The translations under genes and the position numbers were made by a program. From Patescibacteria group bacterium (GTDB lineage Bacteria > Patescibacteriota > UBA1384 > XYA2-FULL-43-10 > 1-14-0-10-43-13), in assembly GCA_041666325.1 (NCBI GenBank), contig JBAYHC010000002.1:51635-115634 (forward strand): DNA of 64,000 nucleotides, written 5' to 3'. The notes under the pieces were generated by a model that saw only the letters and a program-made list of their open reading frames with translations, was not told the DNA's origin and did no database searches. Below are positions 23,940-41,989 of the stretch, piece by piece; positions within the stretch are counted from its first letter, which is position 1; every line of letters begins with the position of its first letter.

Positions 23940-24566
23940 TTAAAGTTCGTCGTTCAATATATCATCCAGCTCTTTGTCGAGCTTAGCCAGGCGATCTGCT
24001 TCAGTTTCTGGCTTCTTCGTTCCGCGTGTCTTTTTTGGAGCTGTTTCCTTTGTTTCGGCTGGCGCTTTGGCCTTTGCCTCTTCTTTAGTTTCAGTTGGTT
24101 CTTCTGATGGTTCTTCGGCGGGGGCCGCTTCCTCTTCTTTATCGTTTCTGACCGACATCAATTCGCGACTGTCCGCGGTTTCACCCTCTACTGCCTCAAA
24201 GGCTCGTTCTCCACCGGCGACTTCCTCAATTGCTTCTGCTCCTACAATTTCCTCTGCCGTCAGAGTAAGCTCCTCTGTGCCGTAATCCTTCACGATGATA
24301 AGGTGGCGGATAACTTGTGGGAAGAGATGTAATTGCCGTTCCAACGGAGTCATCCCATTGGCCGGGAGATCAAAGTTGATCGTAACATAGGTTGCGAACT
24401 CTTGTTTCTTAATTGGGTAAGCGAGCTTTCTTCGTTTCCAGATTTCTTCCTTGAGGAGCTTGCCTCCAAGATCAGAAACAAAACCGCCAACTTTGCCGGT
24501 TACTTTATTTAGATCGCTCTCTGGGACCTTGTCAGAGACAAGGTAGGTCATTTCATATGAACGCAT
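23940..24566 (-). CDS. rpsF: 30S ribosomal protein S6 with ~100-aa acidic/Lys-Ala-Pro-rich C-terminal extension
   Basis: N-terminus MRSYEMTYLV...; conserved rpsF-ssb-rpsR order; long E/K/A/P tail. Confidence 0.85.
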   Translation of the reverse strand: MRSYEMTYLVSDKVPESDLNKVTGKVGGFVSDLGGKLLKEEIWKRRKLAYPIKKQEFATYVTINFDLPANGMTPLERQLHLFPQVIRHLIIVKDYGTEELTLTAEEIVGAEAIEEVAGGERAFEAVEGETADSRELMSVRNDKEEEAAPAEEPSEEPTETKEEAKAKAPAETKETAPKKTRGTKKPETEADRLAKLDKELDDILNDEL

Positions 24567-24711
24567 GGACACCCTTTCTGTGGCAACCTCGGCTCGCCTG
24601 ATGGCGAGATGGGCTCTCTGGCCTTTCGGGCTAGAGAAAAAGGTTAATAAATATGTATTATGATTTGTGAATCATGAGTTATGGTAACAGAAAATGAGGG
24701 AAAATGCAAAT

Positions 24712-26172: not shown

Positions 26173-27585
26173 ATGGATCCTAATAAAATTTTAAGTGCCG
26201 GGAACAAGGACATTATGGATAAAAATAAAAAGTCGGATAAACAATCGGGCAAACTGCAATGGAATCCATTAGACAGTAATAATACGGTCGGCGGATTGGT
26301 TAAGACTGCATATTCGCTGGAGGCAGGATCTAGTATTGTTGGTCAAATTATCTGGCAGTCATTTTATATTTTTTTGGTCATCTATTTTTCAGCTCAACTT
26401 AAAATTACGCCCATTCTCGCTATAGTTGCTGCTATTTGTGCTGGTATCTCACTCTGGATCTATTATCGTTCTTATAAAGTAATCAGAACTCTGCCAAACG
26501 AGAATAGTTTAGAAGGTTTTCAAAATATATTTATCCTTCGAGAACTGTATAAAATTCAAAAATCGATTGCTGATTCGCCAACGTCGCTCATTTTCTGGTA
26601 CTTATTGATACTTTATTTTGTTCAAAAATCACCGGGTTTTGAGTTTGTCCCGCATTCGGTAATCATTTTTCTCATTCTCATCTTTGCCGGTAATTTCTTA
26701 GTCGACCAGACGTTTGGAATAATTCGCTACCTGCAATATAAGCGCCATCTGCCTGAGGCCAAGAATAAAGCTCACGTTACTCAAATCGCAAAGCTGATTG
26801 ATGAAAAGATTGGTCTGGTCGGTTATTTAATTACAATGCCGATATTTTTTGCGTTAGCACTTCTTGTCGCAAGGAATATCGCTAATGGTGTACCAGGGCT
26901 TGCCACGATTCTCGCGTCAACTGGATCCCTGACTACAATCGTAATTGCTATTATTGTTTTTGCCAGCACATTGGTTATTATGCCGGTTTTATCAATGGTT
27001 ATTATTCGGCGGATCAATTCAATTGATTTTTCCCAATTTTCTGACCCCGTTATTCCTGTTGCAGTTGATTCTTCTCCTGTGATATCAAAAGAAAGGCGCC
27101 AAATTATTGATTCAGAGGAAAGATTGGTTTCCCTTTATGGTATTTGGAATACCCATAGTTACTCTGTCGAGGTTCTGGGAAAAGGCCAGCGCTACGATCC
27201 AGAGAACACCCTGATTATTACTCCCCACCGCCTTGTCTTTCTGAAAGTGCCAGTCTTCGGTGCCGGTGTTTCTATGGATGGTATTGACTACACTACCGAA
27301 GCAAATATTTGGGGGCGGGCAGATATCAGGGCGAAGGCCGAGGAGCTGGTTCAAAGCCATACCTTAGACGAGCTAGTTGAGAGAGATAAAGATAATTTTG
27401 TTCTCACTTATGACAAAATTAAAGAGGCCAAGCTAATCAAAAAAGGTTTTATTAATGTTCCGAGGCTTGAGGTTCATTCAATTGATGGCCGATCTCGCGC
27501 ATATTGCTGGCTGGACAAAACCTACCGTGGCATATTGGAAAGTACTCTGCCTAAAGTCTTAGGTGATCGGGCGATTATCGACTAA
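26173..27585 (+). CDS. Hypothetical polytopic membrane protein with C-terminal soluble (possibly bacterial PH-like) domain
   Basis: 470 aa; ~8 hydrophobic helices in first 300 aa; no recognisable catalytic motif; start may be at internal Met. Confidence 0.45.
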   Translation: MDPNKILSAGNKDIMDKNKKSDKQSGKLQWNPLDSNNTVGGLVKTAYSLEAGSSIVGQIIWQSFYIFLVIYFSAQLKITPILAIVAAICAGISLWIYYRSYKVIRTLPNENSLEGFQNIFILRELYKIQKSIADSPTSLIFWYLLILYFVQKSPGFEFVPHSVIIFLILIFAGNFLVDQTFGIIRYLQYKRHLPEAKNKAHVTQIAKLIDEKIGLVGYLITMPIFFALALLVARNIANGVPGLATILASTGSLTTIVIAIIVFASTLVIMPVLSMVIIRRINSIDFSQFSDPVIPVAVDSSPVISKERRQIIDSEERLVSLYGIWNTHSYSVEVLGKGQRYDPENTLIITPHRLVFLKVPVFGAGVSMDGIDYTTEANIWGRADIRAKAEELVQSHTLDELVERDKDNFVLTYDKIKEAKLIKKGFINVPRLEVHSIDGRSRAYCWLDKTYRGILESTLPKVLGDRAIID

Positions 27586-27823
27586 TCAGGCTCAGTACGT
27601 CCATGCCTGGAGAACGCTTCGAGATATAAATCTTGACGACAATTCCGAGTAGCCCAAAACGCTAACTCGCACTATTTGAGTCTTAGCGCTGATGGTTTTG
27701 ATCTCACCATTCGACCCAGCTTATCTCGTTGAACTGTCAGTTGTTCTTTTTGTGGTCGCGGAGCTGTGAAAGAGAACTGAAATTCTAAAAATCGGATTTG
27801 ATGAGGTAGATGCCTATTTGTCG

Positions 27824-27857
27824 AACAAAAAAGCCGCGGCGAATGCCAGCGGCGGGA
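27824..27857. repeat. 34-nt terminator-like element copy 1 (AACAAAAAAGCCGCGGCGAATGCCAGCGGCGGGA)
   Basis: Identical to 28768-28801; on minus strand forms short GC hairpin followed by TTTTTTG; lies 20 nt downstream of stop of 27877-28701 gene. Confidence 0.8.
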
Positions 27858-27876
27858 TGTATGAATAAACCATATC

Positions 27877-28701
27877 TCAATTGGTCAGTTCAGCCTCTTT
27901 TCGATAGAGGTCGCATAGGCGGCCAAGCACGACAAGCAGGGTGATTTGTGAAGTGAGGGTATCAACATCAACAGGCTGGAGCTCGGCCCCATGTCCTGGC
28001 TCCCAGGGATGAGCCATCCAAAGCATACCGCCACTCGGCGGGACCTTGAAGCGCAGTCCTGTCGGGAGATTAATGATTGTTTCAAGCCAGGACACATCGC
28101 TCTCGTCGCCAGCCATGGCTTTGTATGCTAGTTTGACTGGTGCTTCCAGGTCGGGCCAACTATAACATTGGCCTTTTTGTGATAACCAATTCATCAAATC
28201 AGCTGAAAGTGTAGCACAGAAAGAACCGCCACGCATTCCGAAGGTTGTGATGAAGTGGTCAATCGTCAGCAGCTGGCTGCCTGCGCCGCTTTGTCCTCTA
28301 TCATAGCCAAGGGCAGCAAACAGAAGATTGAGTGTGGCGGATATGCAGAGGATTGAATCATGGTTTGGCCTTCTCCAGCCTGAAACAGGGTCATACTCAG
28401 CTGTTTGCAGGTCAAAGTCTAGAACAACATCACTTGAACTGTCCTCAACGAAACCAACAAACATGTATGATGCAGCTCTACCGAAACCAAAGAAAGCAGT
28501 TCCCTCCTTGTGGTCAGCAAAGGGGGGTAGGCCGGAAAATCCTTTCTGCCTAGCTGCTTCCTGCCAATCTAATCGAAGAAGATTCTCCCAAACATCTCGT
28601 TTTATCCAGATGCGGAGGTTGGGGTCTCCGCCGGCAGCAGATAAGCGGTATCGTTCTGGTATTTTGCCACAAAGCAACGAAGGAACTCTTGCCTTGTCCA
28701 T
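27877..28701 (-). CDS. Hypothetical protein (274 aa), GC-elevated
   Basis: Start ATG 28701 after RBS AGGAGGA; no recognisable motif; ~55% GC. Confidence 0.45.
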   Translation of the reverse strand: MDKARVPSLLCGKIPERYRLSAAGGDPNLRIWIKRDVWENLLRLDWQEAARQKGFSGLPPFADHKEGTAFFGFGRAASYMFVGFVEDSSSDVVLDFDLQTAEYDPVSGWRRPNHDSILCISATLNLLFAALGYDRGQSGAGSQLLTIDHFITTFGMRGGSFCATLSADLMNWLSQKGQCYSWPDLEAPVKLAYKAMAGDESDVSWLETIINLPTGLRFKVPPSGGMLWMAHPWEPGHGAELQPVDVDTLTSQITLLVVLGRLCDLYRKEAELTN

Positions 28702-28767
28702 TTGGCTCTTCCTCCTGTGCGGTATAATTACCGCAAACTCTTTGTAGCACAATAGGATACAGCTCGC

Positions 28768-28801
28768 AACAAAAAAGCCGCGGCGAATGCCAGCGGCGGG
28801 A
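28768..28801. repeat. 34-nt terminator-like element copy 2
   Basis: Exact repeat of 27824-27857, 15 nt downstream of stop of 28816-29742 gene. Confidence 0.8.
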
Positions 28802-28815
28802 GATGAAAGGGGAAA

Positions 28816-29742
28816 TTAGGCTCGGGGAGCGCGGTTCGGTGTAGGACGGATCCCATTGACCTCGACGGTAGCCGAGACAGTATGGGCACGCTCCTCGATG
28901 CGCTGTCGCATCCGGTCCAGGGCTTCCTTAATAGCCAAGATGTCCTGATTCGACTGGAACTGTGACAACAAGGTGGCAAGATACTCGATGGCGCCGGTAA
29001 CCTCGGGCACGTCGCCAACGATCTTGGCGAGCCGTGCCAAGATGGCACTCGCCTGGCCGACCGTTTCGACGTTGAGGTTCTCCGGGTCAACCAAGGCGTC
29101 AAGCATCCGCAAACAGGTCGCCGTGTCGGCCGTCTCGATCGAAATGGGTTGGTCAGACACGGGCTGTTGTCTTGGCTGCATAATGGCTGCGACTGCAGCC
29201 TGCACGTCCGGGGCAAATTCCGGCTTGGACTCAGGGGCAATATCAGGTGCTACCAAGGTGGCACAATATCCGTAGTCACTGAGATTGCCATCGTTCCCAT
29301 AAGTCAAACGTGTGAACAATATTCCGCTTGTGTCTCCGTGTCGAAATACAACATAGCTTTGGTCAAACACTGCGCTGCTGAGTGTGCCTTCGTTCAAAAA
29401 GAAGATTCTGATTTGGTTATCTCTGGTTTTGTACCATTGAACAACCGGTAGCCAAGTGGCACGACCGACTTTTTCGGCCTCTTCGACAATCTGTCTTGTT
29501 GCCCTGAACTTGTCCATAGCAGCCAGGACTGCTTTTTCGCCATAATACGCGCCTAAGCCGAAGAGCAGAATCGGTATGCCGTATACAAAAATGTTCATCA
29601 TGTGCAACGAACGAAGGACAAAAAAGATGATTATGCTAGCAACGGCAGCGCAACCAGTTGGTAGCCATCTTGGGGTGGGCTCCGATACCTCACCTGAGCG
29701 GTCTGGGACTTCGATCTCAAGTGGAATACACGGATTACTCAT
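28816..29742 (-). CDS. Hypothetical membrane-anchored protein (2 N-terminal TM, beta-rich middle domain, acidic helical C-terminus)
   Basis: 308 aa; TM segments AAVASIIIFFVL and IFVYGIPILLFGLGAYY; unknown function. Confidence 0.45.
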   Translation of the reverse strand: MSNPCIPLEIEVPDRSGEVSEPTPRWLPTGCAAVASIIIFFVLRSLHMMNIFVYGIPILLFGLGAYYGEKAVLAAMDKFRATRQIVEEAEKVGRATWLPVVQWYKTRDNQIRIFFLNEGTLSSAVFDQSYVVFRHGDTSGILFTRLTYGNDGNLSDYGYCATLVAPDIAPESKPEFAPDVQAAVAAIMQPRQQPVSDQPISIETADTATCLRMLDALVDPENLNVETVGQASAILARLAKIVGDVPEVTGAIEYLATLLSQFQSNQDILAIKEALDRMRQRIEERAHTVSATVEVNGIRPTPNRAPRA

Positions 29743-29904
29743 GTTTTCCCTCTCTCACAGCGTTGTCGCACTCCGGCTCCAGGCACGGAATGCCGACATT
29801 ATTATATGCTTTTCTTTGAATTTGTCAATGTCAGAGGCGCACAATGCGACTCATGTATCAAAAAAGCGGAGTGGTGCTCCGCTGAGAGGTAATTTGCAAA
29901 TGGG

Positions 29905-30756
29905 TCAAAAGATGTATCGAACACCCTGTTGGGTCCAGCCGGCAAAGCCGGTGATGTCCTGATTCTCCCAATTGTCGGCATAGTGTATCAGGTGCATTTT
30001 GCCTCGGATTTCCGCCGGGAGTGTTTGCAGGTCGGCAAGCGGTGCGTGAACGGCACCGGGGAAGAATTGAACATCGTGGAACATAACACTCGACCTATCA
30101 GCATAGAAGTCAATCAATTGCCGGTCAAAGCGTGTGTCGCAGGAAACGAAGACGTGGCCATCGATAAACAAACCATAGCTCAGGAATGAATCTCCCCATC
30201 CCGTGGAGTTATCCGGGGTATGCATAGTGCGGAAGATCTCCAGATCGATGCCAGCGTAATTGCAGCTGAATATCTCGCGTGGTTGCTGCACTTTCCAGCG
30301 TGGTTGGACGATCGAGAAGTAATCAACGAGTGAGAGCCTTCGGCCGTCTGCTTCCTGCTCATTGTACTCAAGGCCGCCACGCAGCGAGCATTCCCAGAGT
30401 ACACGCTGATATTCAGGGGAAACGATCATCTTGAGTTTGTCTTTGCCAAGCATGCGCCGACCTTTGTAGCGGTTGGCTAAGGCTAACGTTTCGATTCCGC
30501 CTATGTGGTCAGCGTGCGAATGGGTGGGCAAGAGCACCTCAATGTCGGTCGGAGCAAGGTTGGCAGTTTGCCGCAATGCGATCTGGGCCTTCTGGCCAAA
30601 ATCAACCAAGATGTGGGTTTTGCCCTTAATGATAAGGAAATTGGTCTGGAAGTTGCGCTCGGCGTCCGCCGAGCCAACGCCGAGGAAGAAGAGTTCGAGT
30701 TGGCCATCATTTTGAAGACTGTATTTCTCTCCTGGCAACATGCCTCTTGTTTCCAT
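29905..30756 (-). CDS. MBL-fold metallo-hydrolase
   Basis: HxHxDH motif LLPTHSHADHIGG; start ATG 30756 (METRGMLPGEKY) after RBS aaaggga. Confidence 0.7.
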   Translation of the reverse strand: METRGMLPGEKYSLQNDGQLELFFLGVGSADAERNFQTNFLIIKGKTHILVDFGQKAQIALRQTANLAPTDIEVLLPTHSHADHIGGIETLALANRYKGRRMLGKDKLKMIVSPEYQRVLWECSLRGGLEYNEQEADGRRLSLVDYFSIVQPRWKVQQPREIFSCNYAGIDLEIFRTMHTPDNSTGWGDSFLSYGLFIDGHVFVSCDTRFDRQLIDFYADRSSVMFHDVQFFPGAVHAPLADLQTLPAEIRGKMHLIHYADNWENQDITGFAGWTQQGVRYIF

Positions 30757-30864
30757 TGGATGACTCCCTTTCTGTGGGTCAACGTTGAAGCACGCACGAA
30801 CCATACCACAGTGCCACCTAGGTGTCAAATGTAACGCGAAGGAATCGATGATTGACGTGGCCTT

Positions 30865-31242
30865 GTGGCCATGGTAGAATCACGCGTGTATTTTGACGAG
30901 GGAGGGAAGTGGAAGATGCGTAATTCTTTGTGGTATCAGGCGGTGTACCAGGGCACCGGCTTGACGATTGAGCTGGCTGGTTGTTTTGATGGCCAAGACG
31001 TATTCCAGATACGGGAGATTGTGGCCACGATGTATGCCAGGGGATTTAGCCAGGTCATTCTTGACTTTGACAAGGTAGTTTCTCTGGGTGATGAGGGCTT
31101 GCTTGTGCTCTATCAGAGTTACGATCTGGCAAGGAGGAGTAATCGCCAATTTGGTATTATCAATCCCAGTCCAGACGTGCTTCAGCTGCTCAAGCAAACA
31201 CAATCAGAGAGGATTATCTACACCGGTGAGAGCAGGGTATGA
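30865..31242 (+). CDS. STAS-domain protein (anti-sigma-factor-antagonist-like)
   Basis: ~125 aa; LTIELAGCFDGQDVFQIREIV...VILDFDKVVSLGDEGLLVL pattern typical of SpoIIAA/STAS fold. Confidence 0.45.
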   Translation: MAMVESRVYFDEGGKWKMRNSLWYQAVYQGTGLTIELAGCFDGQDVFQIREIVATMYARGFSQVILDFDKVVSLGDEGLLVLYQSYDLARRSNRQFGIINPSPDVLQLLKQTQSERIIYTGESRV

Positions 31243-31367
31243 GCGACTAGCTCGTGCCCAACAGACAGAACTGTGCGATTGATACGCGGGCGGCCTTAGT
31301 GGGTCGCCCTTTATTGTTATTACCTGATTGTTGTGGTATCTAGTTATCAATCGGAGGTGAGAGTGGA

Positions 31368-31925
31368 GTGATGACGAAACCAGTCGAGACTGTTGAAGCA
31401 GCTTGGCGGCAGCTTGATCCGTCGCCGGAAAAGTTTCGTCAAGCTTTCTTTGCGCCTGGTGTTTCGGTTGCGACAATCCGGTTGAGTTGGCAGCAGAAGC
31501 GTCAACTACAGGATAGCGTGATCGCCGGCATCATTGGGGACGAGACTTTTGACTTGGATGATTTTCTTTATCTGGCGGAACATTGTTGTCTTGATTCGTG
31601 GGCTGGAGTCGGAGATCGCAATGGTCGCTGGGATGATGCTGGAGAGATTCTTTATGCCGAGGCGGTCAAAGCCGGCAATGAGTCTGCTTGCCGAAGCATC
31701 GAGAAATGGAAGGACCGACCAGCTATATTATATGAAGGTGCGCGCATGTATGTTGGTCGGCTTTTCTTTCGCCTAGGGGAGGAATTGAGGTGTACCAGCA
31801 TTAACACTGCGAAGAGATTCGTCGTCTCAGTTCTTATCGAGAGAAGCTTGCGTCCGAGTAAACCGCAACAGCGGCGCATCAATTGGAGTGAGTTTGAGCT
31901 TGTCGACCCGCAGCCTCCGTCATAG
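31368..31925 (+). CDS. Hypothetical protein (185 aa)
   Basis: ORF with RBS ggaggtgag upstream; no motif recognised. Confidence 0.4.
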   Translation: MMTKPVETVEAAWRQLDPSPEKFRQAFFAPGVSVATIRLSWQQKRQLQDSVIAGIIGDETFDLDDFLYLAEHCCLDSWAGVGDRNGRWDDAGEILYAEAVKAGNESACRSIEKWKDRPAILYEGARMYVGRLFFRLGEELRCTSINTAKRFVVSVLIERSLRPSKPQQRRINWSEFELVDPQPPS

Positions 31926-31977
31926 GAGGCCTTTTTAAAACAAAAACTCCGGCGGGGCCGGAGGAAGCGGAACACAA

Positions 31978-32739
31978 TCAAATGTTCAGTTGGGGACGAG
32001 CCTGGTCGTTCTTGGGCACATCCTTCTCGAGGATGACCTCAGTCTTGCTGCCTATTTCAAAAACTTCTCCCGATATCAATATCCGTGCCATCGGTGCTTG
32101 CCAGCCATCTATGCCTGATGGGACGAGAATGGATCGGAATGATCCTTTGGCAAGACAGTCTACTTGGCCATTTGCTCGCCGGTAAATGCGTATTCCCTCA
32201 AATTGGAATTTACTGTTGATAATATTTACCAACTCTAGCACCTGCCTATAGCAAGAGCTGTATTCATTGAAGTAGCCGAGAATGTTGGATAGCGTAATTT
32301 CAATCAGGTTGGCTGGCAATCTGGTTCGAGGTTGCGGTCGTCGAATAGCAGATACTACCCTCCAATCATGCGATAGGCTGATTTCAACAATCTGTTTCTC
32401 TGTATAGCTCTCGTCGGCTGCGTGTGTGACGGACGATAACGCCAGATAGATATCGGCTGGGTAACTATCGGGTTGGAGTGTGCCGCCAATCTGAATGGGC
32501 TTACAGTAGATGCCGATTGGGTTTCCGCTAAAGGATAATTTGCAAGATGGATCGGCAAGCTCAAGCTCTGTTTGGCTTTGGCCGTGATAGTGTAAAAACT
32601 CTCTGCTCGCCGAGTTTACTTTGTCTGCAGTTGTGTAAACTCTAGCGCAGAGTTCATCAAGCTCCAAGAGTGCTCTTCGTAGATTGGGCGTAGATTTGCG
32701 CGCGTTCTTTCCGATCAATCTGTACCTCCTTCCAGCCAA
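31978..32739 (-). CDS. Hypothetical protein (<=253 aa), lower GC than neighbours
   Basis: ORF only; start uncertain. Confidence 0.35.
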   Translation of the reverse strand: MAGRRYRLIGKNARKSTPNLRRALLELDELCARVYTTADKVNSASREFLHYHGQSQTELELADPSCKLSFSGNPIGIYCKPIQIGGTLQPDSYPADIYLALSSVTHAADESYTEKQIVEISLSHDWRVVSAIRRPQPRTRLPANLIEITLSNILGYFNEYSSCYRQVLELVNIINSKFQFEGIRIYRRANGQVDCLAKGSFRSILVPSGIDGWQAPMARILISGEVFEIGSKTEVILEKDVPKNDQARPQLNI

Positions 32740-32987
32740 AGCCTTCAGCCTTGACTCAAAATATATCTACTCTCCGGGATTAATTATGTCAACACGGGTT
32801 TTGCCGGCATTGTTAAATTGGCTCGGTTCAGTATAGACTAAATGGCTACGGTTTTTTGTAGCAAGGACAATCCAGCCAGGCGATAAAGCCCCACCCAAAA
32901 GGTGGGGCTTGTCGTATATTTTAATAAATTTAATCAGTCTAATATTAATTAATATTATCTTATACCACAAATGAGCACTATTAGCCC

Positions 32988-33016
32988 TTGACAAGTTATG
33001 GTATAAAATATATAAT
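32988..33016 (+). promoter_or_regulatory. Orphan consensus sigma70 promoter TTGACA-17-TATAAT
   Basis: cTTGACAagttatggtataaaataTATAATg; no ORF downstream. Confidence 0.6.
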
Positions 33017-33022
33017 GATCTA

Positions 33023-33160
33023 ATCACTTTAAAAATTGAATACAAATGCCTGGAGGGGCAAGAGATCGTATCTGGTAGCTCGTAGCTAGTGTTTGGGTAA
33101 ATGCTAATTGCCGAATACCGATTACGATAAAAAGCGCCTCCACCACAAGGCGCTTTTTAT
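33023..33160 (+). ncRNA. Candidate small non-coding RNA (~138 nt) between orphan promoter and perfect terminator
   Basis: Only a 10-codon ORF present; bounded by consensus promoter and 10-bp-stem terminator. Confidence 0.4.
33129..33160. terminator. Rho-independent (bidirectional-capable) terminator
   Basis: AAAAAGCGCC-tccaccacaa-GGCGCTTTTT perfect 10-bp stem, A-run before and T-run after. Confidence 0.8.
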
Positions 33161-33529
33161 TAGCTCGAGTGAGATGGGGATGAGGGGTCTGCTCCGCCTT
33201 TCATCGAGGGAAATCAATCTATAAAAATTTATGACTGATTCCCCCCAGCTCAGTCTAGCTAAAATAAAGCTAGAAGAAACAACCCAAAGTCAAACAGGAA
33301 CAGAAGAACAAAAACAGAAAAACAAGAAAAAGACAGAGGGGAAAAACAAAAAAGTAGGAAGAAATCAAAGGTGTCTTTTATGAAACAATATGTTTCATGG
33401 GGGGTACCACAAACGATTTAAAAAGTCGCTTTGCGGCCCTTCCTACGAGCGCAAGTTGAAGTGACCGGACAATAATTAAAAATATTTGTTTCCGATTAGT
33501 TCACAAATCACTTGCGCTCAAACAAAAGC

Positions 33530-33552
33530 CTCCGATTCAGTCGGAGTTTTTT
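33530..33552 (+). terminator. Rho-independent terminator ending a structured non-coding segment
   Basis: CTCCGA-ttcag-TCGGAG then TTTTTTG; preceded by long-range pairing GAGCGCAAGT...ACTTGCGCTC (33436-33446 / 33508-33518). Confidence 0.65.
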
Positions 33553-33696
33553 GTTTGAGAGAATATAGTCTAATTGATTCTTGCGATTGACGTGTCTCGA
33601 GACAGAAGGCTCAAACGGGTCATGTCCCATTCGAAAACAAAAAGCCCTCGGCCACGGGACCGAAGGGCGGAGAAGCGAGCTCTGTGCGGCTGGTGC

Positions 33697-34764
33697 CTAC
33701 GGCTTGAAGAGTGGCCAGCCTATTCCTATTACCACCATGAGTGCGACAAAGGCGCTGATGATGGCTGTTTGGAAGCGTGCGACTGGGTTTGACATCTGGA
33801 CCCAGAATTCAGCGATCTTACCCTTGGGCTGCTTGAGCAGCGGTTTTGGTTCGGGATTGAGCAGGAAGAAGATAAAGCTGCAGATGAGTGAGAAGATAAT
33901 CAACAGTGCCAGGATGGCTCTCCCTCCTATTCTGTGGGAAAACTCTGGTGTCGGCGCTGTGCTAGGGCTGCCTATTCCAGAGAGAACCCCCTGCTTTTTC
34001 ATGGTTTCGATTGTCTGGTTGACCACGAACACGATCTCTTTCTGCCCCATGGGCTCGACAATTCCTGCAAGCTTGCCTGCCTCTCTCTGCTTTCTCATCC
34101 AGCTCAGGAAGGTTTCCTGGTTTGCTCTGCCGCCGAGCGGTTGAGCCTTGATTGCCCTGATCTCCTTCCATGTGTCGCGAATCTGCTCCAGCGCAAACTG
34201 CTGTGTTTGGAGAATGACAGGGGACGAGTATACCACGCGAGTTGCCGGTATGTCTGCAGTGGCTTCGGTGGGTTCGTGTTGAGTAGTATAGGCTTTAGTG
34301 GGAGGGGGGACGACGGGAGCGCTGGGGATTGGTCCGGCAGGACCAGCCTTGGGCAAAGTGTTTTTCGTCAGGGTGCCTCCGGCCAGAGCCGATCTTGGCA
34401 CTCGCTGTTGAGGTGTGGGCAACGCTTGCTGCAGAAGCTTGTTTTGCTCCCTGACAAGCGTGCGTAGCTCTTCGACTTCTGCGCGGTAGCTCCTGATCTC
34501 TAGTTTGAGGTTATCCAGCTCGGTATTTGGCGGGGTCTCGGCGATTGGCGGTGTTGCAGTATTCGGAGCTATTGCGGGCGACGATAGCGCGATTTGGGTC
34601 GTTGAGCCAGTGCTCTCGGGCACAGCTGTTGCAACGACATTTGTTGCCATCGGTGCGGTTGCGGTCAGTAGCGGTTGCTGTGCCTTGGTCGGCACGACTG
34701 CGACGGTCAGGCTGAGCCCGAATGCCGCGATGATTCCTGCTGCTTTGCGTGCGAACGATTTCAT
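33697..34764 (-). CDS. Secreted Pro/Thr/Ala-rich protein with coiled-coil and C-terminal hydrophobic anchor segments (hypothetical)
   Basis: 355 aa; signal peptide MKSFARKAAGIIAAFGLSLTVAVVPTKA; ~57% GC. Confidence 0.5.
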   Translation of the reverse strand: MKSFARKAAGIIAAFGLSLTVAVVPTKAQQPLLTATAPMATNVVATAVPESTGSTTQIALSSPAIAPNTATPPIAETPPNTELDNLKLEIRSYRAEVEELRTLVREQNKLLQQALPTPQQRVPRSALAGGTLTKNTLPKAGPAGPIPSAPVVPPPTKAYTTQHEPTEATADIPATRVVYSSPVILQTQQFALEQIRDTWKEIRAIKAQPLGGRANQETFLSWMRKQREAGKLAGIVEPMGQKEIVFVVNQTIETMKKQGVLSGIGSPSTAPTPEFSHRIGGRAILALLIIFSLICSFIFFLLNPEPKPLLKQPKGKIAEFWVQMSNPVARFQTAIISAFVALMVVIGIGWPLFKP

Positions 34765-35016
34765 CTCTGCGTCCTTTCCGGTGAAGCGGAGTGTTGCATA
34801 CTGTTGTTTGGCGGGATGTCCTTATCTGCCAAACTGCGCATTTCAAAGTGCAGCAGGATAGCTTATCACACCATTAATAAATGACAAGGGCTTTTGTGCC
34901 CGGACTTGTTTTGTCAATTTGTGATAATTAAACCCACAAAATTAGTTGACTAAAAAAAGATCTCTGCTAGCATGTAGTTGCTCTAAGCGTGTGCTTGGAC
35001 AGGCAAGGGGGAACAA

Positions 35017-36099
35017 ATGTCGACAGTTGATCTGAGCCGGCATATTGGGTGCTTGGGTCATCTTGCTTATCAGGCTGACAATTCGCTTGGTCGCCGTTAT
35101 AACGAGTATGACGAAAAGTGGCTTGATGGTATCGTTGGGCCGTTCGTTATTGATGCGAAGATTGTCGATGAGTCAAAAGCAGTGAGGAGACAAAGGCGAA
35201 AAACGCAAGTCTTTACTGGTACTGTTAACTCTCATATGAGAGACAGGGATGTTCACGCCAGGGAGGTTATATCCAACGCTGTGATTATGGCAAGCATTTT
35301 GGGGCTAAATCCTGAGATGTGTAGGGTAGGCGCCATCGCTCATGATTGCTGCCATCTGCCTGGGGGCCATCCAGCAGAGCGGATTCTAAGTAGATTAAGT
35401 GGGCGGAAAATCAAGCACAACCGGCTCTTTTGCGTTATCGGCCAGCATGTTGAGCGCAAGGGGCAAGGATTGCCCTTGCTTTTCGAGACTTATGAGATCG
35501 TTTTGTTCCACTCGGCCGATGAGCACATTCGTCCAGTTAAGATTCTGCCGAAAGAGTATTTTCTCTTGGCGTTTGCCGATACTGCTGCCTTCATCACTGC
35601 TGATCCTGAGGATGCTGTCAAACGTATGCGTTTTATCTCCCCGGCTGATTTTCCGCCTGAGTTTTGGGTTATGGGAAACACGCAAAGAGAGAGGCAGCGA
35701 TACATTGTCAGTCGCTTGGTTAAAGAATCGGCCAGAGATGGTCGAGTGTCATTTACCGATGAGGCATTTGAAGTTACAAAAAGGTGGATGTATGAGCATC
35801 TTTATTATCCTGCTAACTCGATTGCCTTTGCCGATGCGCTTGAGCGAACTTATGCGTTTGTGGCAACCTCGACGATCTTTGAAGGTTGCGATCCGGTGCT
35901 TGTCATTGCTCTAATGATCGATGACGATGTGATGCATCTTGACCGGATCTTGCAGTTGGGTAGAGGACCTGAGATTAGAGACTTTGAGGACAGGGGTTTC
36001 TGGGAGCTGGTTCCTGGTATTCGGGGCCGAGAGATTGATCTTGAAAATCCAGATCTTGATTGGGGTCTGGAGCGCTGGCAAAATCGTAACCGTGAGTGA
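35017..36099 (+). CDS. HD-domain phosphohydrolase, dGTP-triphosphohydrolase-like
   Basis: Motifs HAREVISNA and AIAHDCCHLPGGHPAERIL parallel dGTPase HSLEVAQ / LLHDIGHPPFGH. Confidence 0.5.
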   Translation: MSTVDLSRHIGCLGHLAYQADNSLGRRYNEYDEKWLDGIVGPFVIDAKIVDESKAVRRQRRKTQVFTGTVNSHMRDRDVHAREVISNAVIMASILGLNPEMCRVGAIAHDCCHLPGGHPAERILSRLSGRKIKHNRLFCVIGQHVERKGQGLPLLFETYEIVLFHSADEHIRPVKILPKEYFLLAFADTAAFITADPEDAVKRMRFISPADFPPEFWVMGNTQRERQRYIVSRLVKESARDGRVSFTDEAFEVTKRWMYEHLYYPANSIAFADALERTYAFVATSTIFEGCDPVLVIALMIDDDVMHLDRILQLGRGPEIRDFEDRGFWELVPGIRGREIDLENPDLDWGLERWQNRNRE

Positions 36100-36115
36100 T
36101 CCCTCACGGTTTTTT
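36088..36115. terminator. Convergent-gene terminator
   Basis: AACCGTGAG-tgatcc-CTCACGGTT + TTTTT; stop codon of 35017-36099 lies in loop. Confidence 0.75.
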
Positions 36116-36117
36116 AA

Positions 36118-36837
36118 TTATTGAGTTGTTGCTAGAGAGGCTAACTTTTGAACAATTAAATTTTCGATATATGTCTTGATTTCTAGTTGTTCCTTAATCG
36201 TATTTGTAAGCTCTATGGCGATGATGGGTGCGAAATAGCGAAGTGGAAACTGCTGCAGATAATTTAGCTGTTCCATGTCATCCATGTGGTGCGCATCATA
36301 GCAAACCATGCCCTGTTGATTGATTTCCGGTTTCGTGCCGATGGCGCTAACATGGTTGACCAAGATGGGATAGCGGTCTAGAAGGGGAATGGTTTTTGCA
36401 TAGTTGCCGGATTTGGCTAGTCTGTCACTCTCCAGGTGGGCAAAGTCAAGGCAGAGGCCCGCATATGATCCTAACTCATTTTCTGGTAATCCCAATTCGG
36501 TCGAGGTGTTTTCGAGAGCAATTATGGATCGCAATTCTCCCAGGTCGTATTCCAGTGGGTATTCTGAGTTGGAATGGAGGTTGAATAGTTTGGTGCCAAA
36601 TCTTTTAATTAGATAGTGGTATTCATCTGGCGCCATATCCTGACGAGCGTGGACGAATGGTATTGATATTCCACCCACTTTCTCAAGCGCACGATAATAT
36701 TCTTGTCTTTCGTCTAGCTTAATGCTGGTTAGGAAGAGGGAGAGCTCTCTGATCTTGAGCTGTGCGATATCTCTGATTTGGCTCTTCCAGTCTTTTTGTT
36801 CAAAGGATGTAATGGAAACAAGAACCTTATGTTCCAT
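36118..36837 (-). CDS. Xylose-isomerase-like TIM-barrel (sugar phosphate isomerase/epimerase / AP-endonuclease-2 fold) protein
   Basis: 239 aa; LCLDFAHLE resembles the v-x-lDtaH motif of AP_endonuc_2 family; weak. Confidence 0.35.
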   Translation of the reverse strand: MEHKVLVSITSFEQKDWKSQIRDIAQLKIRELSLFLTSIKLDERQEYYRALEKVGGISIPFVHARQDMAPDEYHYLIKRFGTKLFNLHSNSEYPLEYDLGELRSIIALENTSTELGLPENELGSYAGLCLDFAHLESDRLAKSGNYAKTIPLLDRYPILVNHVSAIGTKPEINQQGMVCYDAHHMDDMEQLNYLQQFPLRYFAPIIAIELTNTIKEQLEIKTYIENLIVQKLASLATTQ

Positions 36838-36909
36838 AGAACCTTTCGGCTAAGTGTTTCTTAAAAAGATACACCTAGTCTAGATTATGAGCAATAGTTC
36901 TATTGGGTA

Positions 36910-37659
36910 TTATACGTATTGTGCTCCGATCCAAGCGAGCTCGAAGATCATTCGTTGAGTTTTGGCGATGCTTTCAGATTCAATAATAACGGCCATGATC
37001 TCGCCTTGAGTGGAGAGGATGGCGACTTTATTACCATAAATATCGATCTCATTTGTAAATGGGAATTTATCAGCTGGGACAAAGCGCGAGGTGCGAAGTT
37101 GTTCGGTATCTTTATTGGTGTATTTCCGAGTCTCTGGTGTGTCAACAACGATGGAGCGAGCACTGATCTTTTTAGCGACGCGATCTTTGATGTAAGCGGC
37201 TGAGAACTCAGGCTCCTTGGTGTAGAAGCCCTCGGCTGTGGCATAAGAGATAATTTCGCTGCCTTCTTTTTGTTGCAAAGTATCATAAAGGGCAGTTTTT
37301 AAGCCTTCTCTGCCCTCAAAAAACCGGACCTTTGGCCGATCTCCAACGGTTTTTTCTAAGACTTTTAACTCCGGCATAGCACTCTCAAATCGCTTGAATT
37401 TCTCTTCTTGGATTTTTTTGAATTGTTCAATGGAGACAGCAGAGTAGTGCTTTTTGCCCCGAATCTCAACTTCAGAGACGATCGCTTTATCCATCAAATC
37501 TTTCAAAATATCATAGGCAAAGGTGCGCTGAATACCGGCGTCCTCGGCAATTGTACTAACGGTGCTTTGACCTAACTTTAAAGCGGCCAAGTAGATTTTG
37601 GCTTCTTGCGGTCGCATGCCGAGATCGGTCAATAATTTTTCATAACTTTGATTTTCCAT
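36910..37659 (-). CDS. TrmB-family transcriptional regulator
   Basis: N-terminal wHTH LGMRPQEAKIYLAALKLGQSTVSTIAEDAGIQRTFAYDILKDLMDKAIV typical of TrmB. Confidence 0.6.
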   Translation of the reverse strand: MENQSYEKLLTDLGMRPQEAKIYLAALKLGQSTVSTIAEDAGIQRTFAYDILKDLMDKAIVSEVEIRGKKHYSAVSIEQFKKIQEEKFKRFESAMPELKVLEKTVGDRPKVRFFEGREGLKTALYDTLQQKEGSEIISYATAEGFYTKEPEFSAAYIKDRVAKKISARSIVVDTPETRKYTNKDTEQLRTSRFVPADKFPFTNEIDIYGNKVAILSTQGEIMAVIIESESIAKTQRMIFELAWIGAQYV

Positions 37660-37677
37660 TTGTTGTCCTATTTATGC

Positions 37678-37756
37678 TGTCATTCCAGCCTGGGGCTAGA
37701 GAGCTGGAATACAGGCTATTGTTTCTGGATCCCAAATCAAGTTTGGGATGACACAA
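37678..37756. mobile_element. MITE-like palindromic element copy 1 (solo)
   Basis: TGTCATTCCAGCCTGG...GAGAGCTGGAAT...TGGATCCCAAATCAAGTTTGGGATGACACAA; terminal inverted repeats TGTCATYCCAG / CTGGRATGACA. Confidence 0.55.
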
Positions 37757-37966
37757 TTATTTTACACTCACATTGTATCTTATTTACGACAATATGTCAA
37801 TATCTAGATACGATGAGGAAAAAATATCAAGAAAATGTGTATCAGCTAATTGACATAATCAATTAATTCTGTTAAAATAGTGCGTTGCAGAGTTGGAAAC
37901 GGCTTTGCAAAGAACCGGCGCAATCACGTGTCAGACAAAACGTCTACAGTTGAAAGGGAGAATCAA

Positions 37967-38512
37967 ATGACTGAGAAGACATACACCGAGAAGATGGACG
38001 ATCTGGCGTATGAGATCTTCAGTCTCATCCTAACAGCGCAAGCACGACTTTGTCTGCACGAGGCCGATCAAATAGCTGGAATGCAGGTTCCGTGCGGCAA
38101 GGGAACAGCGACTGGGGACATAAGTTGGAGAGAAAATGAGCCTTACTGTGAGGTAAGGTTTCGTCATCAGATTCGGACTGGGAGTTGCAGCGTTATTATC
38201 CGCATCGGGGGGAGTCCAAAGGACGTCCATTGGTCTGCGAGCTATTCCGAGCGGACTAAAACGGGTGAATTTATCCGCCAATATATAGAGTACGATGCGG
38301 TTTCGTGTGAGCTCCGGGGCTATAAGACTGGCCGGCTGGCAGAAGAACCTGGCGCCTGGCTCGATGACTCACGGAATGACGATGATGTGCACTGGCGGAC
38401 CACCTTCTGCCCGGAGGCGGAACAGCGGGCTTTACATGACTTAGAGGCCATCTTGGATGACCTTAAAGCCAAGAGAGGACAGTGGGTCATACAGCGTCTG
38501 GCGACGATGTGA
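37967..38512 (+). CDS. Hypothetical protein (181 aa), GC ~55%
   Basis: Start ATG after RBS aaagggag; no motif. Confidence 0.4.
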   Translation: MTEKTYTEKMDDLAYEIFSLILTAQARLCLHEADQIAGMQVPCGKGTATGDISWRENEPYCEVRFRHQIRTGSCSVIIRIGGSPKDVHWSASYSERTKTGEFIRQYIEYDAVSCELRGYKTGRLAEEPGAWLDDSRNDDDVHWRTTFCPEAEQRALHDLEAILDDLKAKRGQWVIQRLATM

Positions 38513-38610
38513 GTACGTCTTCAACCTTCAGACCGTCCCGATAGCCGCTTTGGCGGCTATCGGGGCTAACTGAGGGGTGAAAGCGTGTTCTCGGAAAGGG
38601 GAAAGTGTGA

Positions 38611-39347
38611 TGGGAATCTTCATTAAAGCCCATGATGGGCTGATCGAGTTTCGATTTCTGGTTGATAAGGAGTGGGAGGAGAGTGTAAGACGGTTTCGGT
38701 CCAGCCAGCTGGAGTTTGATTTCCTGGCTGGTGGGAGTTCGTGGAAGAAAGTGGTGGTTGGAGCAGAAGGGAAGGTGGAGATCGTTTTTAGAAAGGCGAT
38801 CGATTGGCACCGAATAATGGAATTACCCAAAGCGTTGCATGATCTGCCTGCCTATGTACAGTATGGGCTGCTTAGCAGTGCCCTTTTGTACGATCTGATG
38901 CCTCACAGCCTAGCTGAATGGGAAGGGACATATTTTCTGTTTAGACAGAACAATGGTCGGGTGGCGGTCAAGCACAATGGCATCGTGGAGCGACTTCCTG
39001 ATTGGGAGAGAGACGAGCGCGAGGAGGAGTTAGGGCGAGAGAGCTTGATGCGGAAAGCTCGCCAGAAGCGTGAAGATCGGCTGGAAAGAAAGCAGAGACG
39101 GAGACAGAAGAAACAACTGCCACAACCGCCAGTGCGTCTTGCCGCCTCCGGAGATCAGATCTGGGGTGGCGGAACAACGAAAGGCAAAACACAACTTCTA
39201 CGCAAGTTCTGCTGGCTGGTTGTCGGGGTGAATGGTGTCTGGCACATGGGGAACCTGATTTTCTCCTGGCCGGATTCACCGCGATGGCTAGCCTATCTCT
39301 CCTTACTAATGTTCTGTTACCTCTTTCTGCACCGAAAGAGGACCTGA
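38611..39347 (+). CDS. Hypothetical protein with Arg/Glu-rich coiled segment and C-terminal hydrophobic helices, GC ~55%
   Basis: Start ATG after RBS aaagggga; perfect 10-bp hairpin CGATAGCCGC-tttg-GCGGCTATCG in upstream spacer. Confidence 0.4.
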
Positions 39348-39937: not shown

Positions 39938-39977
39938 TGGTGTTAATTGGATACTAAATCAATGTAATTACTATTTA

Positions 39978-40032
39978 TGGATCCCGTATTAAGACCCACC
40001 GAGGGTCCCCTTTGTGGGGTACGGGATGACAA
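39978..40032. repeat. Partial member of same repeat family (TGGATCCC-hairpin-GGGATGACAA)
   Basis: TGGATCCCGTATTAAGACCCACCGAGGGTCCCCTTTGTGGGGTACGGGATGACAA; shares ends with tail module of copy 1. Confidence 0.4.
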
Positions 40033-40036
40033 GGGA

Positions 40037-41989
40037 ATGAATGACCTATTAGACAATTTAAATCCCCCTCAAAGAGAGGCCGTGCTCACAACCGAAGGCC
40101 CCGTGCTCGTCCTCGCCGGGGCTGGCTCAGGGAAAACCAAGGCCTTGACGCATCGAATTGCTTATTTGATTAAAGAAAAGCATGTTTCGACGTATAATCT
40201 TCTGGCTGTGACCTTTACTAACAAAGCGGCGGGGGAGATGGCAAGCCGCGTTAGTGATCTGTTGACCGGCCAATCTTATGGTGGTGAGATTGTGAGGCTG
40301 CCTTGGCTTGGGACCTTCCACTCTATCTGTGTTCGAATCCTTCGCCGGGAGTCGAACCACATTGGCTATGATCGCGGCTTTACTATCTATGATGACGGCG
40401 ACCAGCTCTCGATTATCAAGCGTATCATGAAAGATCTCAATATTGACCCCAAGCACTATGCGCCGCAAGCGATTCGTTCATTTATCTCAGGGGCAAAGAA
40501 CGAATTTATCAATGCCCAAGAGTACAAGAAATATAATAATTCTCCCTTCGAAGTCGTGACATCCAAGGTTTACGAGCGCTACGAGAAGTACTTGAGGGAG
40601 GTGAACGCGATGGATTTTGACGATCTCCTGGTGAATTGCGTCAGGCTCTTTGATGAAAATCCACAAGTGCTGGAGCGCTATCAGGATCAGTTCAAGTATA
40701 TTCTTGTCGATGAGTATCAGGACACCAACCATGTTCAGTATTTGTGGGTTAAGATGTTGGCGGCCAAGCATGGGAACATAATGGTGGTGGGGGACGATTC
40801 ACAGTCAATTTACGGCTGGCGTGGAGCCAATTTCCGCAACATCCTGAACTTCGAAAAGCACTATCCGTCTGCCCAAGTGATTAAATTGGAACAAAACTAT
40901 CGTTCTACCCAGGTTATCCTTGAGGCAGCCAACGAGGTAATTAGATACAATCGTCAGCGTACAGACAAGAAGCTCTGGACCAAGAATCAGCGCGGTTTAC
41001 CAATTTCGATCTATGAGGCGCTCAACGAGAAGGACGAATCTGAGTTCATTGCTCTCGAGATTGCGTCACTCGCCAGAACCAAGGGACAAGACGAAGAAAA
41101 AAAGTACTCTGACTTTGCCGTTCTTTATCGGACCAATGCTCAGTCCCGTGCTGTTGAAGAGGCCTTCTTGCGCTTCAATATTCCTTATCGAGTCGTTGGT
41201 GGTATGCGCTTTTACGAGCGCAAAGAAATTAAAGATATCGTTGCCTATCTGCGCGTAATTGCAAACCCGCGTGATTTTGAGGCTTTTGAGAGGGTTGTTG
41301 CGACTCCATCGCGGGGAATAGGCGAGAAAACACTCACTCAAATACGGCAGATTCCTAATTTTCAACTATCAGTCACCAATCAGACGCCGAATTTAGAATT
41401 TTCCATCCCTGGCAAGATTGTTGATTTTTTGGGTATCCTCGATGAAATGAGAGAGTATGCCAAGGATTCTGGCCTGCCTCAATTAATTGAACATATTGCT
41501 GTGAAGTCTGGTTACCGCCAGCATCTTCTGGATGGTACCCCGGAGGGCGAGGGAAGATGGGAAAACGTGATGGAACTGATGACTGTTGCCGAGTCGGTCC
41601 AGAAATCACGCGAGAGCGATGACACTGACAGCCATCTTTCTGATCTGGAGCGTTTTATTGAAAGAGTAATGTTGGCTCAGGACGTAGATGAATATGATAA
41701 GGATAACAATGTTGTAACGTTGATGACACTTCACTCCGCAAAGGGCCTCGAGTTTCGAGTTGTGTTTATTGTTGGCGTCGAGGAGGGACTTTTCCCTCAC
41801 ACTCGGGCATTGGCTGACGAGAGTGAGATGGAGGAGGAGCGCAGGCTTTGTTATGTTGGTATTACTCGTGCAAGGGAGCGGCTTTATCTTTTGTATGCCT
41901 CCGAACGCGTGATCTATGGTCGGTTCCAGTCTAATCCCAAATCTAGATTCATCGAGTGCTTGCCGGACAACCTTATTGACAAAGTATAG
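40037..41989 (+). CDS. uvrD: ATP-dependent DNA helicase UvrD/PcrA family
   Basis: Walker A VLVLAGAGSGKTKALTHRIAYLI, motif TFHS, DEYQDTN, C-terminal helicase domain; start at MNDLLDNL. Confidence 0.9.
   Translation: MNDLLDNLNPPQREAVLTTEGPVLVLAGAGSGKTKALTHRIAYLIKEKHVSTYNLLAVTFTNKAAGEMASRVSDLLTGQSYGGEIVRLPWLGTFHSICVRILRRESNHIGYDRGFTIYDDGDQLSIIKRIMKDLNIDPKHYAPQAIRSFISGAKNEFINAQEYKKYNNSPFEVVTSKVYERYEKYLREVNAMDFDDLLVNCVRLFDENPQVLERYQDQFKYILVDEYQDTNHVQYLWVKMLAAKHGNIMVVGDDSQSIYGWRGANFRNILNFEKHYPSAQVIKLEQNYRSTQVILEAANEVIRYNRQRTDKKLWTKNQRGLPISIYEALNEKDESEFIALEIASLARTKGQDEEKKYSDFAVLYRTNAQSRAVEEAFLRFNIPYRVVGGMRFYERKEIKDIVAYLRVIANPRDFEAFERVVATPSRGIGEKTLTQIRQIPNFQLSVTNQTPNLEFSIPGKIVDFLGILDEMREYAKDSGLPQLIEHIAVKSGYRQHLLDGTPEGEGRWENVMELMTVAESVQKSRESDDTDSHLSDLERFIERVMLAQDVDEYDKDNNVVTLMTLHSAKGLEFRVVFIVGVEEGLFPHTRALADESEMEEERRLCYVGITRARERLYLLYASERVIYGRFQSNPKSRFIECLPDNLIDKV

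Follow-up and report, generated by a model that had tools for sequence, protein, structure and literature searches.

The locus described here raised the question whether a short promoter-terminator unit in a Patescibacteria genome is a small RNA gene in its own right or one part of a larger gene. The unit lies on the + strand at positions 32988-33160 of a 64,000-nt stretch of contig JBAYHC010000002.1 (assembly GCA_041666325.1; the window, whose coordinates are used throughout). A first-pass annotation had proposed it as an orphan, autonomous gene for a small RNA (sRNA) of ~138 nt. Analysis of the window and of related loci pointed to a different answer: the ~138-nt unit is probably an attenuator-like 5' leader belonging to a large structured non-coding RNA whose gene is conserved and vertically inherited in a Berkelbacteria-like clade of ultra-small Patescibacteria. 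The conserved unit, from promoter through second terminator, yields a predicted RNA from 33023 to ~33556 (~534 nt, + strand).

The unit began with a sigma-70-type promoter (32988-33016, + strand) that matched the consensus at 12 of 12 positions, with a -35 hexamer TTGACA at 32988-32993, a -10 hexamer TATAAT at 33011-33016 and a 17-bp spacer, as first annotated. Sites with at most one mismatch to this consensus occurred seven times in the window, compared with an expected 0.30, a count that none of 100 shuffles reached; two were perfect, and the sites were located in front of genes. This enrichment indicated that the organism uses sigma-70 consensus promoters and that the site at 32988 is not a chance match. 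Across ten homologues, TTGACA was invariant (10/10) and the -10 element read TATAAT, TAAAAT, TACAAT, TATACT, or TAAACT. From 32988 up to the large RNA, the + strand contained no second promoter-like site. The other perfect TTGACA-17-TATAAT of the window, at 41976, overlapped the end of uvrD. A Shine-Dalgarno sequence, a 75-codon open reading frame (ORF; 42137-42364), and a strong terminator (GCCCCCTTCCGGGGCTTTTTTG) followed downstream, forming a unit at 41976-42386. A small ORF resembling this one was present 3' of uvrD in several relatives (e.g., at 8970-9215 of L100; relatives' loci are designated by L numbers).

Conservation was strongest downstream of the first terminator (33161-33556) and contiguous with it. 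An nhmmer comparison of the whole intergenic region with relatives' loci matched L088/L089 at E = 3e-23 over window positions 33163-33562, including a block of ~75 nt that was ~90% identical. A metagenome pattern scan on this block gave eight hits, consisting of three further distinct lineages, a second L088-type copy (L097), and four matches that were rejected as chance (L092-L095). The uvrD neighbourhoods of six relatives, whose UvrD was 66-68% identical to that of the window, all contained the RNA (6/6). The single pattern scan, the six uvrD-neighbourhood look-ups, and L088, which was found beside ychF, together gave ten distinct homologues. UvrD proteins of the ten relatives were 68-78% identical to one another. 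In all nine homologues with uvrD on the contig, the RNA was located upstream of this gene and in the same orientation; the remaining one, L096, is a 2.4-kb contig without it. In several homologues, the RNA lay between dnaB and uvrD. No gene was called inside the RNA region at the loci for which gene calls were available. A covariance model of the 3' hairpin (R1) detected exactly one copy per homologous locus (81-98 bits) and none in 80 loci from distant phyla, a weak match in L047 being an unrelated repeat hairpin. No paralogues or repeats of the unit were found in the window.

In the window, ychF (24712-25815) and uvrD (39977-41989) are separated by a variable island. A tblastx comparison of the ychF-uvrD stretch with L088 revealed nothing in common except uvrD itself and one non-coding stretch, without any shared protein gene. 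The RNA was present in every sampled clade member while neighbouring protein genes turned over. This conservation of the RNA region between non-conserved protein genes was the reverse of the pattern that the first-pass annotation had named as speaking against its proposal. Two nearly identical RNA copies with different neighbours were found in one metagenome (Ga0209417), at 5095-5652 of L098 and 3879-4436 of L099. In L098, dnaB is directly upstream of the RNA, and in L099 a gene for an EamA transporter lies in between. With UvrD proteins that are 92% identical, L098 and L099 look like two co-existing strains.

The predicted full-length RNA of the window folded at -172 kcal/mol, compared with -121 ± 6 kcal/mol for shuffled sequences (z = -8.6), and lengths within the family ranged from ~395 nt (L101) to ~710 nt (L102). 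Its 5' domain is organized around a long-range helix, P1, in which 33161-33179 (TTAGCTCGAGTGAGATGGGG, with GAGATGGG invariant in the family) pairs with 33240-33262 (TCCCCCCAGCTCAGTCTAGCTAA), as indicated by alignment and covariation. P1 comprised 18 pairs, was 93.8% paired, and showed double changes in six pairs. The interior (33180-33239) contains a hairpin, Pa, and a helix, Pb, which encloses a conserved loop motif AATCNNTAAAAT (loop AAUCNNUAAAAU); double changes occurred in three of the six pairs of Pa and in four of the six of Pb. The 3' strand of P1 overlaps a covarying hairpin, P2 (TCTAGCT/AGCTAGA, 33254-33274), so that the two together occupy 33240-33274; P2 was 96.3% paired, with double changes in three of six pairs. 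Over the entire 5' domain, 89.6% of cells were paired and 13 of 30 pairs showed double changes, as compared to 6.0 in shuffles (0/500 reaching the observed number). Within 33161-33274, lower P1 (X':X) and P2 (X:X'') share the strand GTCTAGCT/UUCUUGC and are therefore mutually exclusive. Covariation was seen for both helices in the family and is suggestive of a second conformational switch, between P1 extension and P2, inside the large RNA. At 3548-3839 of L102, the P1 interior measured 291 nt instead of the 65-133 nt found in other homologues and carried a ~200-nt insertion, indicating that large expansions can be accommodated in the scaffold.

An A-rich linker of variable length (33275-33369; AT skew 0.34) connects the two domains. 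In the minimum free energy (MFE) fold, linker segment GTAGGAAG (GUAGGAAG; 33354-33361) paired with CTTCCTAC (CUUCCUAC; 33439-33446), thereby enclosing helices H5 and H7. In a cross-species complementarity matrix, 5 of 10 cognate pairs reached eight contiguous base pairs, and this long-range helix is accordingly only tentatively assigned. A Shine-Dalgarno-like motif in the linker (AGAGGA/AGGAAG) was better read as one strand of the long-range helix with CCUCUUAC/CUUCCUAC. The 3' domain continues with H5 (33370-33408), H7 (33425-33437), and a closing strand, Z (33437-33446), in which helix 1 comprised 15 pairs, five with double changes. It ends in H8, a 73-nt hairpin with internal loops (33447-33519) whose mean column identity over ten lineages was 81% and whose R1 score in the window was 96.9 bits (E = 5e-23). 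Helices 2-4, in H8, contributed 21 pairs, nine with double changes. Over the 3' domain, 96.6% of cells were paired and 14 of 36 pairs showed double changes; shuffles gave 5.3 ± 1.5 (0/500) and slid controls no more than four.

A final intrinsic terminator, an inverted repeat of bidirectional appearance at 33517-33559, places the predicted full-length 3' end at ~33556. It occupied the same position in nine of ten homologues; the aligned stretch of L096 contained an A-run only, with neither hairpin nor U-tract. The RNA is assigned to the + strand by its promoter, its U-tracts, and its many G-U pairs, which the opposite strand would turn into A-C. Within the limits of ten sequences, these alignments provide a solid basis for the RNA family and its predicted structure. 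Small proteins were rejected as products of the locus: neither the length nor the sequence of a 10-codon ORF in the leader, of a 50-aa K-rich ORF (33231-33383), or of ORFs at the invariant AUG of GAGAUGGG was conserved, and the frame that opens at this AUG ranged from 2 to 21 codons depending on the lineage.

The unit that was originally annotated corresponds to the region upstream of P1. Transcription is predicted, from the position of the -10 element, to start at ~33023, and the ensuing 5' leader segment (33023-33051), with the motif AATCACTTTAAAAA (family consensus CUUUAACAA), was unpaired in every fold. A CUUUAACAA-like motif was present in all homologues, and the first 24-28 nt were unpaired. 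The tail is followed, at 33052-33064, by the GGAGG element GGAGGGGC (33052-33059), proposed from folds and duplex energies as an anti-terminator strand, and by GCAAGAG, which repeats the 5' strand of P1. Next come a long imperfect hairpin (33065-33128), conserved in position and not in sequence or length (~0-90 nt among homologues), and an intrinsic-terminator hairpin with A-tract, GC stem, 8-nt loop, and U-tract (33127-33161), at which the ~138-nt short RNA is predicted to end. The terminator stem is a perfect 13-bp inverted repeat (ATAAAAAGCGCCT/AGGCGCTTTTTAT, 33127-33139/33148-33160; 13/13 bp) around an 8-nt loop, preceded by an A-tract and followed by TTTTTATT; a terminator scan of the window did not list this hairpin. 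The predicted 141-nt short transcript folded at -42.3 kcal/mol (z = -3.3).

Several details of the first-pass annotation were revised by these data. Its terminator with flanking A- and T-runs was confirmed, but the stem has 13 rather than 10 bp, with an 8-nt loop. The surrounding region is indeed gene-free and AT-rich, with a GC content of 0.37-0.40 compared to ~0.5 in the flanks, but extends over 978 bp between called genes (32719-33696) rather than 830 bp. The only ORF noted between promoter and terminator, of 10 codons, was found (ATG at 33047, MPGGARDRIW followed by a stop codon) and was not conserved in homologues. Two further hairpins were observed where the intergenic region is not conserved, on its left side, at 32886-32910 (AAGCCCCACC/GGTGGGGCTT) and 32845-32862 (GCTAC...GTAGC). 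These hairpins (32845-32910) are terminator-like on the - strand, lie upstream of the gene for an orphan 246-aa protein, and were without nhmmer match in L088.

A module consisting of GGAGG element, variable hairpin, and terminator was located between 5' tail and P1 in six of ten lineages (window, L096, L098/99, L102, L103, and L104). It was absent from L088, L100, L101, and L105, in which the promoter is joined directly to the downstream RNA. The junction in L088, GGAGGGGCAAGAG|UGAGAUGGG, is the exact product expected of a deletion between the direct repeats that flank the module. In a midpoint-rooted neighbour-joining tree of UvrD, constructed without support values, module-bearing lineages were basal and paraphyletic and module-less lineages clustered with the window. 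This topology indicates that the module is probably ancestral and was later lost. Among module-bearing homologues, terminator stems differed in a compensating manner (GCGCCU/AGGCGC, GCACCUC/GAGGUGC, GCACCCGCC/GGCGGGUGC, ACCCUCCAU/AUGGAGGGU, and GGCAUUCC/GGAAUGUC), and each was followed by 5-6 U.

Folding of truncated leaders, in which only the terminator 3' arm was missing, showed pairing of GGAGG with the CCUCC-containing terminator 5' arm or loop in the MFE structure of all six module-bearing homologues. This pairing closed the long hairpin into one extended helix. With complete leaders, the terminator was the MFE structure in five of six cases. In all six, predicted terminator and anti-terminator helices shared one strand and were therefore mutually exclusive. 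Anti-terminator duplexes ranged from -12.5 to -16.4 kcal/mol, as compared to -9.6 to -20.7 kcal/mol for terminators, and in five of six leaders the duplex energy was matched by at most 3% of composition-matched shuffles. Sequences flanking GGAGG:CCUCC differed among lineages and compensated one another (AUGGAGGG/CCCUCCAU, CGGAGG/CCUCCG, and GGAGGGAA/UUCCUUCC). In the MFE fold of the full-length window RNA, the GGAGG:CCUCC anti-terminator was chosen and the U-tract was absorbed into an extension of P1.

By reasoning from these folds, we infer an attenuation mechanism that would partition transcription between the ~138-nt short RNA and the full-length RNA. RNA polymerase would start ~7 nt after the consensus -10 element and transcribe, in this order, the unpaired conserved 5' tail, the GGAGG element, the variable long hairpin, and the intrinsic terminator with CCUCC in its 5' arm. 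Before the 3' arm of the terminator emerges, GGAGG would pair with CCUCC to form the extended helix, which would act as anti-terminator. If this helix persists, read-through would follow, and the terminator 3' arm and U-tract would be absorbed into the extended P1 of the large RNA. If it is prevented or displaced, the terminator would form and release the ~138-nt short RNA, so that the leader would set the ratio of short to full-length RNA. The leader appears to be dispensable, since four lineages seem to have lost the module by clean deletion between direct repeats.

Candidate inputs to such a choice would be binding of a factor to the purine-rich GGAGG or simple kinetic competition. A search for a sensor gave no riboswitch family match, no conserved leader ORF, and no aptamer-like conserved pocket, with the GGAGG element alone being invariant. 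With respect to a CsrA-type GGA-binding regulator, no homologue of CsrA, Hfq, ProQ, or KhpA was found in ~250 kb of clade sequence, which consists of genome fragments and is hence uninformative on this point.

Several considerations weigh against the interpretation of the unit as an attenuator-like leader. The transcription start, the two 3' ends, and the proportion of short to long RNA are predictions, and we likewise infer the occurrence and conditionality of termination and what sets the choice. In isolation, the leader thermodynamically favours the terminator; its default could be strong termination, which would be awkward beside the conservation of the downstream RNA. The sequence of the long hairpin is not conserved and no aptamer-like pocket is evident in it, which leaves no candidate ligand. 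GGAGG may resemble the terminator 3' arm through local duplication at the origin of the module, in which case its complementarity to CCUCC would be automatic and need not have been selected. Covariation was derived from 9-10 sequences only, with shuffle controls that ignore phylogeny, and the history of the module depends on the midpoint-rooted neighbour-joining UvrD tree, which lacks support values.

Among alternative explanations, the one that best survived was a single constitutive long RNA, in which the terminator-like hairpin would be a structural expansion segment without in vivo termination, regulation, or short product. The full-length MFE fold, which engages both arms of the terminator elsewhere (GGAGG:CCUCC and the U-tract in extended P1), is consistent with this explanation, as is the tolerance of the family for large insertions at another position (the P1 interior that is ~200 nt longer in L102). 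However, 5-6 U immediately 3' of a GC-rich stem, a hallmark of intrinsic terminators, occurred in six of six module-bearing lineages. Most of these lineages also keep a matching A-tract, a further such hallmark, which is unpaired in the alternative fold, and several Rfam models of terminator-containing leaders and sRNAs matched, below threshold, exactly on these hairpins. A purely structural role of the hairpin is considered rather unlikely.

The original proposal was only partly upheld. A real, non-coding, promoter-driven unit on the + strand is present, and a product of ~138 nt that ends at ~33160 is plausible, but this unit does not stand alone: it is contiguous with a larger conserved RNA, without an intervening promoter, and four of ten lineages lack the terminator module. 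An autonomous, trans-acting sRNA, in which the 138-nt transcript is functional, its unpaired 5' tail serves as seed, and the downstream RNA is a separate adjacent gene, would account for the perfect promoter and strong terminator. It would also fit the 24-28 unpaired 5' nucleotides with their conserved motif and the fold z-score of -3.3. However, it would leave the downstream RNA without any promoter-like site of its own, and in the four module-less lineages this RNA directly follows the shared promoter and 5' tail, with no terminator in between. Moreover, neither sequence nor length is conserved in the long hairpin that forms the body of the short RNA, and retention of the tail motif in module-less RNAs assigns that motif to the large RNA. 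This explanation is regarded as unlikely, slightly more so than a constitutive long RNA.

Insertion of a small mobile or duplicated terminator-bearing element, with silencing or decay of the RNA gene in this genome, is very improbable: direct repeats flank the module (GCAAGAG ... GCTCGAG in the window) and module-less alleles look like precise excisions, but six deeply diverged lineages carry the module, with diverged sequences, at exactly the same site, which indicates that it is old and inherited, the window holds no other copy of it, and the downstream RNA is equally conserved with or without it (R1 81-98 bits in both groups). Equally remote is a long cis-regulatory 5' leader of uvrD/pcrA, since, despite a co-oriented position upstream of uvrD in nine of ten lineages and RNA ends only ~15-100 nt before the uvrD start in L101/L105, the RNA lies 6.4 kb from uvrD in the window with three opposite-strand genes included, is separated from it by intervening genes in L100, L102, L103, and L104 as well, ends at a terminator in nine of ten lineages, and shows undiminished conservation where it is uncoupled from uvrD.

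Comparison with known RNAs did not yield a family assignment for the leader and large RNA. Searches of Rfam 15 at the gathering threshold found no family matching the RNA locus in the window and no hit at all, tRNA included, in 146 kb of relatives' loci (L086, L088, and L100-L105). The classes suggested by the first-pass annotation (6S RNA, signal recognition particle (SRP) RNA, transfer-messenger RNA (tmRNA), and riboswitches) gave no match even at E <= 10. At this cut-off, four family members showed no similarity to 6S, SRP, RNase P, tmRNA, riboswitch, OLE, GOLLD, ROOL, HEARO, or raiA models, and only sub-threshold, terminator-driven matches were obtained (e.g., STnc250, MicC, Phe_leader, and P9). 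The best partial match, STnc250 (RF01409), was rejected because it reached 26.2 bits against a gathering threshold of 42, with the terminator alone carrying the alignment. Enterobacterial Hfq-type sRNAs such as STnc250 share a promoter, a short structured body, and a Rho-independent terminator with the unit described here, but the latter is not autonomous. No match to the unit was found among viral contigs or phage and plasmid records.

Housekeeping RNAs (tmRNA, RNase P, SRP, and 6S RNA) resemble the large RNA in having a strong promoter and in being single-copy, syntenic, and present in every sampled clade member, and its size is near that of tmRNA and RNase P RNA. In contrast to them, it lacks a tRNA-like end, P4-type conserved sequences, and a consistent tag frame. 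An A-rich stretch with a downstream hairpin whose loop contains stop codons looks tmRNA-like, but in a hand check frames and "tags" were inconsistent between homologues. A tmRNA was rejected, as ARAGORN was negative in the window and L088 and no tRNA-like domain was found.

The succession of three segments, in which a 1:2 anti-terminator and a 2:3 terminator with U-tract are mutually exclusive, is shared with classical attenuators (trp, pyr, and Phe leaders, T-box), and a sub-threshold match to the Rfam Phe_leader model fell on the L104 terminator. Unlike these systems, the leader has no conserved leader peptide, no T-box or specifier features, and no matching Rfam family, and the gene downstream is non-coding. 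EutX of Enterococcus faecalis and Rli55 of Listeria monocytogenes, reportedly described in Science in 2014 by DebRoy and by Mellin and their respective colleagues, are said to be non-coding RNAs gated by adenosylcobalamin (AdoCbl) riboswitch leaders. The likeness to EutX and Rli55 would consist of a promoter and a leader whose conditional intrinsic terminator decides between a short RNA and a long, separately terminated non-coding RNA, the regulated product being RNA. No cobalamin or other riboswitch aptamer matched at E <= 10 in the leaders of the window or L104, and the EutX/Rli55 type of control is in this respect not recognizable here. Instead, a non-conserved hairpin lies between the competing strands, and the RNA downstream is far larger and has more structure. 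In its proposed working, the closest analogue would be EutX/Rli55, and in kind, the large ornate non-coding RNAs.

OLE, GOLLD, ROOL, and the raiA motif are large, highly structured bacterial non-coding RNAs whose function is unknown or partly known (PMC12286853; PMC10861870). They share with the RNA described here a length of hundreds of nucleotides, many covarying helices amid sequence-invariant stretches, restriction to particular lineages, and the lack of an assigned biochemical function. The present RNA differs from them in occurring in Patescibacteria rather than in Bacillota or phages, in its A-rich unstructured linker, in the attenuator-like leader found in most lineages, and in having no Rfam 15 match. 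A literature search found no description of such an RNA in the candidate phyla radiation (CPR) and almost nothing on regulatory RNAs in this group.

The window sequence was 100% identical to a 231-kb metagenome contig (ENA ERZ27249449) and to contigs of two other samples (three samples in total). NCBI gives "Patescibacteria group bacterium" as the label of the YchF and UvrD of the window. YchF of the nearest relatives was 72-79% identical to that of the window, and several of these relatives are labelled Candidatus Berkelbacteria; a ychF scan of GTDB returned, among the matches listed, distant taxa only, at no more than 58% identity. The hypervariable island between ychF and uvrD (26173-39347) contains genes for an Apyc1-like (anti-Pycsar) metallo-beta-lactamase (29905-30804), for STAS, HD, TrmB, and GIY-YIG proteins, and for the orphan 246-aa protein. 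The latter, which is encoded on the - strand as left neighbour of the RNA, had no homologue among 5.8 billion proteins, and the HD-domain neighbour had none among GTDB representatives. In L086, a serine-recombinase element (5783-10035; Resolvase/Zn_ribbon_recom, an HTH_17 gene, and an Omega_Repress gene) is located directly upstream of ychF, and the recombinase ORF overlaps the ychF start. An ORF for ribosomal protein S6 at 23940-24572 encodes 210 aa, as compared to 228-277 aa in relatives, and its Pfam S6 domain covers residues 6-93 only, which implies a long C-terminal extension conserved in the clade. The 64-kb window contained only one tRNA, a tRNA-Leu (61852-61937).

Genomes of Patescibacteria (CPR) measure ~1 Mb and contain hardly any non-coding DNA. 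Highly structured RNAs of large size are rare in bacteria; where the function is known, they include ribozymes and components of ribonucleoproteins. For the full-length RNA, a protein-binding or ribonucleoprotein housekeeping role is considered most likely, albeit with low confidence, in view of its size, its strong promoter, its helices of invariant sequence, and its occurrence in all clade members sampled. A more far-reaching and, at present, doubtful possibility is that it represents an uncatalogued class of large (~0.4-0.7 kb), ornate, housekeeping-type RNAs, specific to this Patescibacteria clade, that would be self-limited by an aptamer-less attenuator and endowed with a second switch in the 5' domain (P1 extension versus P2); as such, it might be a ribozyme, a scaffold for ribonucleoproteins, or a strongly diverged stand-in for a canonical RNA.

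The existence of a new family of large structured RNAs in this CPR clade is well supported. Its seed alignment and covariance model can be used for annotating CPR genomes and provide precise probes for metatranscriptomes of the source environments. These environments are represented by ENA ERZ27249449, SRR6484324, and SRR18595301 and, for the L088 type, by Hainich groundwater (ERZ1292638/-635/-640). The leader would constitute a compact natural example of an RNA gene that is gated by terminator and anti-terminator without a recognizable aptamer, with four lineages serving as natural "deletion mutants." Retention of the RNA in every sampled member, at a fixed chromosomal position and with a consensus promoter and invariant helices, suggests that it plays an important role in these organisms.

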